A stretch of DNA of 64,000 nucleotides, taken from Squalus acanthias. Its lineage: Eukaryota. The notes under the pieces are model-generated. The model was not told the origin of the DNA. It did not search any database and saw only the letters and a list, made by a program, of their open reading frames with translations. The stretch is from contig CM059435.1 in NCBI GenBank assembly GCA_030390025.1, positions 106,020,001 to 106,084,000 on the forward strand. The letters run 5' to 3'. This document shows, piece by piece, positions 10,684-52,416 of this stretch. A program made the position numbers and the translations under genes. Numbering within the stretch: the stretch's first letter is position 1; each line of letters begins with the position of its first letter.

Positions 10684-12283
10684 ATTATTATGTGTTTTGA
10701 ACAAAATGTACACAGACTAGAAAAACAAATTCCCTTCAGGTTTTCACATATGTTTTGTGTAAAGCTTCATTTGTTGAAAGGTGCTCAATTTCATCTGCAC
10801 AGATGTGCCCCCGACCAGCCAAGTCAAATATCTGATCACTAACTTCAAGAACTTTTGCCAAAGTTGCTTTGATTCAAATAATCATTGCATCGCTTTTGGT
10901 ACAAAATTATTTAGTTCAATGTGTAAATGTGTCATCTGAAGATGACAGATTAATAACGCACTGATTCCAAGGGTAGAGTGACAGCAAAAAAACTCCTGGT
11001 CCTCCTCAAGGTATTCCGTGACACACTGCTGCCTTGACAAATGAACAAAATATCTCATCATTACAGGTAATGAAGAAGGGACTTCGGCATGGTCTCCAAA
11101 ACTACCCAACAGTCTTCCAATTGATAGAATCTACTTCTAGACTTGGTACAGTTGAAGATGTAGTAATCCCTCACTGTGATCTCAATACAAATGATTGACA
11201 TGGGTTATTCAGAATTCCTTTTCCTTTATTTGTGCTATGCATAATCTTTAGATAGATCGTCACATCTAAATACGAATATTTGGGATTACTTCACAGGTTT
11301 TCAAGTTTCTCTCTTGCTAAGGAATGTAGTGTTGGACTAGCAAGCTTGCAGAGTGGGCGGTTGGTCTGAATAAATGCTTCCATAAATAAGGTAAACATTT
11401 AATTCCTTCACTCTTTTGTTATTGATTTTAGTCTTAAAAAGTTCAAAAATTAAACATTTTAATTTGTTTCTGTTGCAACTCCTCAGTATTTGCAAACCTG
11501 AGTTTACCTATTTCAGATACGAGATGTCGACTGCAGCATGCTCACCGTGTAAAATCCAAAAAGGCACATTACATGACAAGTAGAATCATTTTAAAACAGT
11601 AACATTAAACACTGCCTTTGGATATTGCACCAATCTTTGCAATGCGTTCTTAACTTTTTTCAATAGAAAAGTGGTATCGATTTTAATACAGTTGAATTTT
11701 AAGAAGTTACAAAAACGTGATAATTTCAAGAGATAAAACCTTGGTTACTGCTTCACTAAATTTTATAGTTACTCAGATTATAACTGGTAAGTTTTGGTAA
11801 GCAAGTAACAATTTCAACAGAGTGCCTGTGGCAAAAATTGAGTTTTTTTTTGTCTGTAGTTTATTTTTCCTCCTTTTTACAGTTTTCAAGTTAAAATAGG
11901 TTCTTAAAAAAAACACACTCCATCTTGAACCTGCAAACTCATTGAAGCTAATGTATTTTTCCTTAAAGTCAACCTGATTATTGTCTGCTGCATCGAGACA
12001 AAAAGTATAAATTATTACACTAGCATTTTCACTATAAAGTTGTTCATGCCAATGCTTCTCCACAGCACTTTCCGACAGCAATCTGCATAGTTATCCATCT
12101 ATTAAGTCTGTCAGGTTATTTTGTCACCCTGTGTAGCTGTTTAGCAGTGAATGTATTCACCCTTCTAATCTCATCAGGCGCTGACAGCTTGGCTTCATCT
12201 TGAAAAGGAGGTGGATAGTTGGAGACAGATTCGGAGAGACCTGCCTTATTTGAACCCGACTGCATTGACAACTATATTTAATT

Positions 12284-12491
12284 GTGAGAAGTCGCACAAC
12301 ACCAGGTTATAGTCCAACAGTTTTATTTGAAATCACAAGCTTTCGGAGCGCTGCTCCTTCATCAGGTGAAGTGACGAAGGAGCAGCAGCTCCGAAAGCTT
12401 GTGATTTCAAATAAAACTGTTGGACTATAACCTGGTGTTGTGCGACTTCTCACTTTTGTCCACCCCAGTCCAACACCGGCATCTCCGCTTC
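12284..12491. mobile_element. Penelope-like element remnant (inverted pLTR fragments forming a fold-back)
   Basis: Arms 12284-12364 and 12372-12453 (66 bp perfectly inverted), AATAAA in each arm, and a direct repeat ATATTTAATTGTGA at 12274-12287 and 12492-12505 (TSD). Confidence 0.85.
12333..12369 (-). ncRNA. Minimal type I hammerhead ribozyme motif (Penelope-associated)
   Basis: Minus strand TCAC-CTGATGA-A-GGAGC(AGC)GCTCC-GAAA-GCTT-GTGA has the CUGAUGA and GAAA core boxes, a 5-bp stem II, a palindromic AAGCTT stem III and a 4-bp stem I (TCAC/GTGA). Confidence 0.75.
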
Positions 12492-14500
12492 ATATTTAAT
12501 TGTGAAAGATATCTTTTGATATCCGTTGATTAAATGCCTTAAGACATTTTACTGCGTTAAAGGCGCAAGTTGTTATTGTTTGTCTCTGGGGGAATGAACT
12601 GATGGACAGCTCCTTGCCCAGGGAGATAAATATATTGACCACTTTTGTTTTGCCATTTCTGCAGTTCTTGTTCTACAGCCCATGTAGAAGGAAGCCTGTG
12701 AAGACATAATCTCAAGTATAAATTTGGTGCTTCATAAACTGATCTAGGTTCATGGTCATTAAGATAGTTAGTAAAAAGTTTGTCTTTTTTCATTATTTGT
12801 GAACCAAGAAACTTCAAGCTAAAATGTTGTAATCTAGTGGAATCTGTTGATCTTTCACTATTATTTTTACTTTTAATAAACCAAATTCATAGACTACAGC
12901 CCCAGTCACACGGTCAGATAGTGATTATTCTTCCATCATCCAAACACAAAAGGGCTTATGATTTCCAGTAAGCAAATTACAGTAACAAGGGTGTTCCATT
13001 CAACCTTGGGCAATACTACAATATCAGATAGTATGTGCACGTAAGGTCACGCTTCAGTTCTTAGGAAGCAAGGGCTAACCGAGAGCAATGGCCCTCGACA
13101 CTAAGCCCGAGAGAAATATCTGACAAGAGCCTGAAAATTGTAGCATTGCCAACTACAAAAATGTAATCTGAAATTTAGCACCTCATGGAAAACATGAATG
13201 AGTCCATTGAGCCAGTGTGTGCACCCAAATGTGTCTATATCTGTGAATGTGTAGGCACATTTGGGTTTAAGCACTGCTATTACAGATTCGAGCACACTTT
13301 TTGCTCGAAAGCGTAGCAGCAACTTTCCACTAATTTTACATAAACTGTTTAAAACATGATTGCACAGCCTGCAAGACTGCACAGAATCTGGTTAGCCTGT
13401 GAAAACCTCACTCAAGCATTAGCAGTTGAGAGGTTCGTTAACGACTATTGCTGCATTTCTATATTAAAACTAACCAGAGAAAAGGTAGGATTGACGGATT
13501 GATTTTGAAAGATGAATGACATTTAAAAAATGAAAAGAAAAGCAAGCAGTGGGTGAAAAATTAGATGTAAAGTCAGATAATAAAAAGTGCTTCATACAAC
13601 AAGTAGCACAGCACATTGCTGTACCAATAAGTTGTAGGACAGGGTAGTAAAAGGCAGGTGCACTCCCCACACAGTGAGTTACATATTACTGGGAAGGCAA
13701 CAGATTCTAGAGGATTTAACAGTGCACACATACTAGTTTAAGCATCGGTGTAAAGCGGTTTCGACTTTATGTGGATGCTAAACTTGGAAGTATAAACTAG
13801 ACGTCGAGACCCAAGTGAGGCAGAGCGAGACTACCTCCACCAGGAGGTTCGCAATGTTCTTTGCTCCAGTGACACAATTACTCACTAAAAAAAAATCTAC
13901 AAGTATCTTAAAAAGTTATCCCAATACGTTATACTGACGTTCTACTTATTTAATATTTCACTTAAAGTACTCTACATTCCCACAGGCCCCATTATTTTAA
14001 ATGGCCAAATAATGATTTGGCGCAGGCTTCACACAGAACATTCCAGATGCTACAATTCAGTCAAGCAATAACACCAACATAAAAATTCAACAATTACTGT
14101 AGCCCACATATGTTCATAACCCAATGACAACCGCAATGTTCAAAACAGCATTGATACTTCACACAATCTCAAACATCTCTGCCCCAATACTAAGAGATGA
14201 AGCACAAAACATTGCAAACAGTACTGTAGTTAACCATTATTTTGTTCAAATATGAAGTCGATATTTTATCCACCAACAAATACCTAGGCCCAGCAACAGC
14301 TATGCTTCAGTACTGTTAGACAAAGAACTAGTCAATAGAACATACTGATCACCTGTTACTGGGGCAGACTGCAGCTGGCTACAAGAAGCGATTTAGTCTG
14401 TATTGCATGACTATCAAAGGCGTGGAGGGAGACAGGTCTCACTACAATGTAACATTCACAAGATCATCGCCTCTTCCCTACCTCCTGAAAAAAATGGTTA

Positions 14501-45400: not shown

Positions 45401-46782
45401 ACTCCTTCAAGCACAAAAAATGACCAGCACTATAGTACTACAATCTCAAATGTAAGAATGCCCACTTACTATACCAACATTATAGACTTTTGACTATATA
45501 AAATATATACATACATACAACTCTGAAAACGGTTTCGGGTTAATAAAATATCTCCTCACCTAGCACGACCAAAATGCCTGAGCATAAAGCCATCAAACAG
45601 AAAAGCCGCAAGTTCTATTTGTTTAGCGTAGTTAGCAACACAGGTTCGTATGATTTGAAACCTACATCTTGTACCAGCAGTGTTACTGATGTTGAAAGTA
45701 CTACAATTTATAAAGCAAATTACCATACACTACCTTGCCCATAACTACTGCCTTGATCACATTAATATCGATTTTCAATTAAGATCTGTACCTGTTCACA
45801 TATCCAATTACTCTGAAAAGCTACACGGTCATATCTGAATTTTGTTTTAAGTTGTTTATAGTTTACATAAAAGATGAATTTATTCTTTCTTTCTTTAAAC
45901 CAATAATTTGCGCCATACTGGAAGTACTATAATGTAGTTCAACATGGATTGACATTCCATGTCAAGTCAATCCATATCCCTCAAATAATTTTCAACAATG
46001 TATACTAATTTTAAAGTAAATCTCTGCCTAAATACAAAATTATGCATGCATAGATGAATAGTTTTTGCATAATACTGAAATTTGATAGCTTTATAAATTG
46101 AAAATCTAAAAGTGATAAAGTCTTACACTTTAAAATTCCATACAAAATTACAAATAGTAAAAACTATTGGCAGCAAAATATTATTTGGAATAATAAAATT
46201 GATTACAGAGTCCCAGATGTTCAGCTCTTTCCATCATAAGTAGTTTAGCAGTAAAGGGTTTGTGACGTGCGATTGTAAGTATTAGTAGCCACTGAAACAA
46301 AACCCAAATCGCCAGCTACATTTTGTAGAATATGTCACTTGCCCTTGGCTGTGTAACACAATTCGGAGATGATCGCCATGTCCCACATTGTGTATGGACC
46401 TGAGGAACTTTCTACAACAATGCAGTGAGCGTGGAACAAAACTATGTTTGAAACAAAATATGAATCCAACTTCCACGAGCAACTTACAATAAACAAGTTG
46501 CATCCAAAAAAAAAATAAACATTACATCTTACTGTTTGGGGGAAAAAAATGCATGCACTGAACCAGAAACAGACATAATCACGGGGAATGAAGAATTTCT
46601 GAAATTGCAGCACAGAGCCAATGGGAAATTGTAGTTAGAACTGCGGAAACGCCAGCCACACAGCACGGCTCTCGTGGTGGTGTAAAATGTATACCGAAGA
46701 TGAAGATGATCTAAAGTGTGAGGAGGGCGAAAGTCGGTGCAGGCCCGGTGCGTGAGGTGTGTGTGCGGGGTCGGGATCTTAC

Positions 46783-46900
46783 TCTGCTCCCTGGCTCCTC
46801 ACTGCTGAGTTTGGGCCTGTTCGTTTTTTTTTAACGTTACTCGATTAGAGCAGAGGGGGAGAGAGAGAGAGGGGGAAGAGAGGGAGGGAGAGACTCAGTC
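46783..46900 (-). other. Candidate alternative first exon (5' end uncertain)
   Basis: AGA/gtaaga donor (GT at 46782-46781) inside the CpG island, downstream of a CT-rich tract. Confidence 0.3.
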
Positions 46901-47080
46901 AGAGCCCAGACAAAAAAAAAACAGCACAGCAGCCGCCCAACATCCACACACCGTCGCCCCGCACTCCCCGCCGCCGCGCCCGCCGACATCTTTCATCGAA
47001 AAAGTTGTCGCCGACGCTCAAAAGGACGGAGCTCGGGGCGCTCCGAGCGAGAAACAGAGAAAGAAAACGTTAAAACTTAC

Positions 47081-47160
47081 CGCATGAATTATCTCCTAAA
47101 ATAACTCCAAGATGGCTGTGTATTGCACCGGGGATGCTGGGTGCTGCCCTTTACCCTATG
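47081..47160 (-). other. Candidate first exon ending ...GATAATTCATGCG (5' end uncertain)
   Basis: Strong GCG/gtaagt donor (GT at 47080-47079), ATG 5 nt before the donor, inside the CpG island. Confidence 0.6.
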
Positions 47161-47588
47161 ACCTTTGGCCTCCCTCCTTTGGAAACCGGCACCGAGCGAG
47201 AAACCACAACAACAGGGGGAAAAAAATAACCCTCGACGCTCAGAAGCCGGCTGGCAGCGAGGAGGACGTTTTGTTTGGTTTCTAAATTATCATTTTTTTT
47301 TTGGGGGGGTGGAAACGTTCGTTTTTATGCGGCTTTCTCTCCTCTCAGGGCTTTGACAACACAGCCCAATACCGGTACACTGCACTTGTTTAGAAGAGAG
47401 GATGTGTGGCCTGTAACTGATAAATCAACCGTGTGTATAATTATTATATCTATCTCTGCCTCAAACTCTTTCCCCCAATCCGAATTATACGTGATTACCA
47501 CAGAGCTTTTAACTGGTATGAAAATCTGTTTCCATCTATTGTTTATTTTTGATGAAATTGATTGTCTTTCGTTGCTTGGGTATATAAT

Positions 47589-52067: not shown

Positions 52068-52416
52068 ATGCGGGCATCGCTGGCAAGGCTGGCATTTATT
52101 GCCCCTCTCTAGTTGCTCTGAAACAGAATGGCTTGCTGGGCCATCTCAGAGGGCAATTAAGAGTCAACCACATTGGTTTGGTACTGGAGACAAATATAGG
52201 TAAGGACATCAGGTTTCCTTCCCTGACAGAACATGGGCGAACCAGTTGAGTTTTTATTGACAATCGATAGCTTCATGGTCACTTTTTTATTGATACCAGC
52301 TTTTTATTTTAAAATTTTGTAACTGTGTTCAAATTCTCAAACTGCTGTGATGAGATTTGAACTCACATTTTCTGGATTATTAGTCCAGTACCAAAATCAT
52401 TATGCTATCGTACCCC
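52068..52416 (-). mobile_element. Related SINE copy, inverted
   Basis: GCTGGCAAGGCTGGCATTTATTGCCC tail, TTAAGAGTCAACCACATTGG core, and TTAGTCCAGTA...GCTATCGTACCC head. Confidence 0.75.

Follow-up and report, generated by a model that had tools for sequence, protein, structure and literature searches.

A 218-nt Penelope-like fold-back carrying a minimal hammerhead motif in Squalus acanthias: a probable product of double priming

Results

Architecture of the insertion and its target site

The fold-back at 12274-12505 of the window (the whole 64,000-nt stretch of Squalus acanthias DNA that was analysed) is, at a probability of roughly 0.8, a 218-nt stub of an abundant Penelope-like retroelement (PLE), made when both nicked target strands primed near the front end of the element's RNA; the caging of its hammerhead motif would then be an unselected by-product. 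The parts of the insertion are as follows.

12274..12287, plus strand: left copy of the target-site duplication (TSD), 14 nt apparent (repeat finder; one copy in two relatives)
12284..12372, minus strand: tail-less terminal-repeat arm of the Penelope-like element, in sense on this strand, with a short-type stem II loop (sequence, family comparison)
12322..12327, minus strand: AATAAA hexamer of the element, paired inside the hairpin (sequence)
12333..12369, minus strand: complete minimal type I hammerhead motif (sequence, own descriptor, PMC4209133)
12365..12374, no strand: head-to-head seam with a 7-nt loop and microhomology of 1-3 nt (T or TGA), found at 232 genomic places
12372..12453, plus strand: tailed arm, truncated at its 5' end at +9, with a long-type stem II loop (sequence, family comparison)
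12454..12491, plus strand: one-sided PLE tail, 38 nt (tail as in PMC8557442 and PMC11167929)
12492..12505, plus strand: right TSD copy (repeat finder; one copy in two relatives)

The repeat finder returned a 66-nt inverted repeat of 100% complementarity (12284-12349 and 12388-12453), and inside it lies a 15-nt pair (12350-12364 and 12372-12386) with one mismatch that reads as a G-U wobble on the minus-strand RNA. One nucleotide is bulged at 12387 and the central loop has 7 nt; the fold-back measures 81 bp overall, and folding of either strand gave a single hairpin of about -154 to -161 kcal/mol. The 14-nt direct repeat (12274-12287 and 12492-12505) overlaps the outer arm by its final 4 nt. These results confirm the first-pass annotation, which had described an inverted repeat of about 80 bp (66 bp perfect, 7-nt loop) between 14-bp direct repeats. 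The two arms differ by an indel in the stem II loop that is polymorphic in the family. The window also holds a 25-nt inverted repeat of 80% complementarity with a 14-nt spacer at 13213-13276. On the fold-back, miRNA models gave only generic sub-threshold matches, and the insertion is absent from two close relatives.

In those two relatives, which are ~3% divergent in the flanks and are represented by single contigs, 12273 is followed directly by 12492 and the 14-mer is present once. The repeat is therefore a true target duplication and the insertion adds 218 nt. A second sample under the same organism label contains both junctions, with 9 differences in about 2,030 flank bases, so that the insertion is lineage-specific and not private to one animal. 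The proposal of a young Penelope insertion, for which a search for the empty site in related sharks had been suggested, is thus borne out. The TSD is longer than the family mode of 12 nt, and the excess is likely microhomology with the arm ends.

The hammerhead motif

The minus strand carries stem I UCAC/GUGA, CUGAUGA, stem II GGAGC/GCUCC, GAAA and the palindromic AAGCUU, together with one unpaired A after position 9 that is absent from the first-pass annotation. A CUGANGA and GAAA core, stems I and II, a UH cut site and a palindromic stem III, which define the minimal type I hammerhead, are all present; C3 lies at 12365 and the predicted cut falls between 12337 and 12336. The U at position 7 is a variant, the family core being mostly CUGACGA. 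Our own hammerhead descriptor found this motif as its single match in the window, against 0.03 matches per shuffled window (30 shuffles), which upholds the claim of a complete minimal hammerhead on this strand. The model scan that had been proposed was divided in its outcome: the descriptor matched once, and the Rfam hammerhead models were silent, with none at gathering score in the window and none at E<=10 in 12200-12600. Stem III can, from its sequence, form only in a dimer, and a minimum free energy cofold did not yield the active dimer. The plus arm begins at U4 and so is without C3 and without the 5' strand of stem I; the reported loss of the core C from the plus copy is correct and extends to this strand of stem I. 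A poly(A) signal had also been noted after the ribozyme. An AATAAA is indeed present at 12327-12322 on the minus strand, but it is the element's own and one of 31 such minus-strand hexamers in 1-47,000.

The motif resembles the published minimal PLE hammerheads (PMC4209133) in being type I with a short stem I and a palindromic stem III, and in having an unpaired base between positions 9 and 10.1 and a G10.1-C11.1 pair. It differs from them in a stem II of 5 bp rather than 7-8 and in an opposite-strand partner that is adjacent and truncated, and it is known from sequence; in the published set (Cervera and De la Pena 2014, PMC4209133), opposite-strand pairs separated by 100-700 bp were also noted. 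A non-LTR retrozyme was considered and rejected, as it requires head-to-tail tandem hammerhead units and the present copy is a single head-to-head insertion. Two further loci were noted: a complete minimal hammerhead that belongs to a related older family and stands alone, without a caging arm (G000:C11:105903994, minus strand), and a head-to-head hammerhead-like pair of a different family, 728 bp apart (G000:C11:105927829, minus strand, and 105928557, plus strand).

Abundance and layout of the family

The hammerhead of the window copy has 14,797 exact matches in the 3.7-Gb genome and the 66-mer of its tailed arm has 3,960. A family sample was taken as the first 90 of 100 listed 66-mer matches on contig C1, which are consecutive copies, with 1.5 kb of flank inspected at 30 loci and about 4.5 kb at 60 loci; the family samples thus represent one contig, and the search pattern favours one subfamily. 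An inverted copy lies upstream in 73 of the 90 copies (3 were judged neighbouring insertions and 1 had overlapping anchors), and in 47 of the 90 the anchors are <100 nt apart, as in the window copy. Both hammerheads are complete in 35 of 69 two-arm copies. The sample spans copies irrespective of gene context, and a complete hammerhead is retained in 17 of the 21 sampled copies that have no inverted arm. Among the 69 two-arm insertions, 26 have a longest flanking repeat of 12 nt and 53 have one of 11-16 nt. Each of the three longest inserts that were inspected is a two-arm inversion.

Seams across the sampled family are highly varied. The count of 232 places for the window's exact seam includes the window and allows two CpG sites to vary; among 12 such copies inspected, the tail stands on either arm, and flanks, loop types and downstream variants differ. 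One copy with the window's seam (L148) has a right arm that breaks after 16 nt and is followed by a further inverted tailed arm. Eight sampled loci (L001, L004, L018, L019, L021, L026, L028 and L051) have near-identical flanks that resemble one CR1-type LINE site.

The ORF of long copies is of RT type, has a Cys-rich linker and ends in a GIY-YIG-like region. The relatives of this ORF are RT proteins of 750-900 aa, some with a GIY-YIG domain called. A 400-aa frame in the sister copy L098 gave weak RVT_1 and GIY-YIG matches below cut-off and has 56-66% identity to 880-aa RT proteins, with PF01541 in three weaker relatives; a PDB search with the element ORF returned nothing useful. The family is accordingly an EN+ PLE, having an RT and GIY-YIG ORF (absent from the window stub itself), an inverted truncated repeat with a tail, and a TSD with an empty site. 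The Cys-rich RT-EN linker in the L098 frame suggests, by the criterion in PMC8557442, Neptune rather than Poseidon.

Arm 5' ends and the extra G

The 5' end of the tail-less arm coincides with the family's putative transcription start (+1 = 12372), or, with the TGA overlap included, lies up to 2 nt farther out. Among 159 arm 5' ends, 25 fall at +1/+2, 27 at +3 to +12 and 17 over the 11 bases just upstream; the +1 calls number 13, of which 2 are probably mis-calls of a farther-extending haplotype. TATATA stands 30 nt ahead of +1 in 25 of the 29 copies possessing it. No peak of arm ends was found at the hammerhead cut site (4 of 159 arms, in a bin that includes arms truncated further in). Splicing was rejected as the source of the +1 end, there being no AG before +1 and no common upstream exon at 20 of 20 loci.

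Genome-wide, the base before +1 is G in 3,112 cases and A in 366; C and T were left out of this count because both are templated in some haplotypes. At the control position before +2, G occurs 509 times against 2,277 for C or T, and makes up 18% of the non-templated bases. The G excess before +1 suggests a cap-like signature, comparable to the extra G at full-length 5' ends of LINE-1 (PMC11702581). Inspection of 20 G-junctions by eye found all of them to be seams with the other arm or with flank. The G is untemplated in 6 of the 20 and can be read from the opposite arm in 14, where it is thus shared and not clearly untemplated. Further points speak against a cap. The window copy has no extra G, and its TGA overlap is what a template extending 2 nt beyond +1 would leave; terminal addition of C by the RT need not depend on a cap. 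In addition, 5 of the 20 seams read CAGGTG-ACTT-CACCTG, a perfect hairpin whose arms match, which is the product expected of cDNA snap-back. This perfect short-hairpin seam at +1 recurs at L157, L160, L162, L163 and L170, and snap-back after one added base could explain it.

Discordance between arms

Four variants of the stem II region are common in the family. Arms are discordant in 15 of 30 tight fold-backs, the window copy being such a pair, and in 1 of 21 long ones (Fisher p=0.0006), the count covering pairs with both arms long enough to type. Background arm-arm mismatch is 21 in 2,520 bases (0.8%). Random pairing predicts 68% disagreement, and the concordance of tight pairs is 0.50 against 0.32 expected at random, an excess that counts against double priming from separate RNAs. 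If the second arm were always a fold-back copy of the first, the two would match; two templates are therefore required for half or more of the tight hairpins, barring repeated RT errors at the loop. Long copies have 97.9% identity within pairs and 92.6% between pairs (15 pairs), and each look, from their sequences, like products of one source. It is plausible that promoter-bearing copies in general can supply short leader RNAs in trans.

The host gene

Downstream of the element, coding exons on the minus strand occur at distances of 16 to 52 kb, and a NOT2_3_5_C exon on that strand at 84 kb.

L031:6243-6362, L033:4920-5067, L034:9416-9598, L034:4898-5023 and L153, minus strand: coding exons of a NOT2/3/5-domain gene

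This host gene is likely CNOT2, judged from human sequences and synteny. Many fibronectin-type exons and a phosphatase-like exon were observed on the plus strand in L045-L050; this neighbour is presumably PTPRB, judging from translations. A CpG island at 46501-47500 of the window, with a minus-strand donor-like site near 47081, is a candidate first exon of the host gene. The element thus probably lies in a 5' intron of a CNOT2-like minus-strand gene with the intact hammerhead in sense, as the first-pass annotation had placed it and as the downstream minus-strand exons would support. A strict splice scan found no convincing exon within the window, and a motif search found no small upstream coding exon. 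Of the 166 stop-free minus frames of L034-L037, 150 were compared with Pfam, yielding LINE domains and weak matches only, and one exon frame searched against PDB gave no useful information. In run X7 (presumed RNA, other organism label), low-depth contig pieces in the unique flanks give a weak hint of transcription. A weak tRNA match (30.7 bits) at 52350-52407 of the minus strand, with a related copy near 51.5-51.7 kb, is probably a tRNA-derived SINE.

Discussion

The proposed origin of the insertion would run as follows. The element's endonuclease would cut both target strands about 12 nt apart, and each end would prime at one of two internal start sites ~38 nt apart, leaving a tail on one arm. 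If the template is a sense transcript that is capped and uncut, and priming takes place in its 5' terminal repeat, only about 90-130 nt would remain to be copied, and the cDNAs would run off the template at +1 or close to it. Microhomology of 1-3 nt would then join two cDNAs, which in this copy probably came from separate RNA molecules. Both promoter and ORF are missing from the resulting stub, which as part of a host pre-mRNA would be expected to form an inert hairpin. Beyond this one copy, we lean slightly towards most short Penelope hairpins in this genome being double-primed capped 5' leaders, produced by a dimeric enzyme holding two different RNAs.

Such hairpins could also be formed by self-priming, in which one cDNA (or an antisense RNA, as proposed for Adineta; PMC3846280) folds back and the second arm copies the first. 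The five G-junctions with perfect short hairpins and the concordant half of the tight pairs are what this route would produce. It does not fit the polymorphic indel that separates the arms of the window copy, and likewise half of the tight pairs; nor does it fit the tail-less arms, which mostly end in a narrow zone beside the 12-nt duplication, the tail on either arm despite the same seam, or a G excess that marks the sense-strand 5' end. We consider self-priming unlikely for this insertion. The arm ends, extra G and arm discordance together favour two separately primed cDNAs from capped sense RNAs, and argue against the antisense self-priming proposed for Adineta. A hairpin copied as a unit, as a non-autonomous element from a master with the window's seam, would account for the many places that have this seam and for the short loop type on both arms in 9 of 11 scorable same-seam copies. 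The short loop type is very common anyway, however, the 12 same-seam copies vary in tail side, loop type and downstream variants, the family's seams are diverse, and the stub is without a TATA box; a master copy is highly improbable.

Selection for caging deserves separate weight, as the first-pass annotation had proposed that the hairpin silences intronic self-cleavage. On this account sense-intronic fold-backs survive because the antisense arm blocks cleavage, and the hairpin feeds small-RNA or editing pathways. Part of its basis holds: if the minus strand is transcribed, the antisense arm is made before the ribozyme, as had been stated, and folding predicts a mean pairing probability of 0.96 for the hammerhead nucleotides with that arm once made. 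The intact motif on the host strand, a predicted sequestration that is near complete (-161 vs -11.6 kcal/mol) and the depletion of retrozymes from Xenopus introns described in a 2026 preprint (10.64898/2026.07.22.740005) also agree with it. The silencing role itself is not upheld. The fold-back is the family default, being the majority layout in a sample chosen irrespective of gene context. Because the arms are head to head, transcription of either strand produces the complement before the ribozyme, so caging arises on either strand, and about half of the two-arm copies retain a complete hammerhead on each arm. The ribozyme would offer little activity to silence, since single minimal PLE hammerheads gave no detectable cleavage in vitro and dimers little (PMC4209133); 8 of 9 Xenopus dimers failed to cleave (10.64898/2026.07.22.740005). 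Copies without an inverted arm, sampled irrespective of gene context, mostly retain the motif. Selected caging is very unlikely to explain this insertion, and as a host function caging is unlikely; the locus is ordinary and shows no sign of serving the host, and the insertion is routine.

Double priming of capped leaders can be compared with three known systems. The head-to-head repeat, one-sided tail of 30-40 nt, TSD and empty allele are shared with Adineta Pen2a_Av and EN+ PLEs, as is a TATATA with a TCACT Inr-like motif in the terminal repeat (PMC3846280, PMC8557442); rotifer elements have a similar TATA and TCACT pair (PMC3846280). Unlike Pen2a_Av, the present copy has no ORF between its arms, the TSD mode is 12 nt rather than 8-10, and there are thousands of copies. 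The Anolis Poseidon element PAc (Frangieh 2024, PMC11167929) is described as cutting and extending both strands with two internal start sites, uncut RNA and a predicted dimer. The present family resembles it in an AT-rich target and, on the proposed model, in two RT start sites bounding the tail, both strands cut and extended, and uncut RNA as template. It differs in that the PAc work is in vitro and is not known to deal with inverted insertions or 5' ends, and that the family here has a Cys-rich RT-EN linker. Activity of the Anolis hammerhead depended on protein, and its cut site did not coincide with the end of any RNA-seq read (PMC11167929). LINE-1 twin priming (PMC11702581) shares the two primed ends, seam microhomology, discrete TSD and extra G; L1 cDNAs, however, copy adjacent parts of one RNA, whereas here the same segment is copied, often from different variants.

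The fold-back layout, the hammerhead motif and dimer dependence are already published (PMC3846280, PMC8557442, PMC4209133). Among the matches listed, some judged by title, no report of extra-G or arm-discordance evidence was found in the literature on Penelope-like elements, in a search with most subscription journals and bioRxiv supplements outside its scope. Relative to the literature found, the family-level clue to mechanism is new and moderately interesting.

With its thousands of copies, the family is a natural collection of the products of a transposition reaction whose steps are still incompletely understood, and the extra-G and arm-discordance counts lead to direct predictions for the in vitro PLE system and for CAGE data. 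Its thousands of near-perfect hairpins are, by their sequence, a large potential source of dsRNA in this genome. If most short hairpins are indeed double-primed capped leaders, genomic seams would map the element's transcription start, record its cap and show that the templates were uncut by the hammerhead, and the question of sense versus antisense templating would be settled for short Penelope hairpins.
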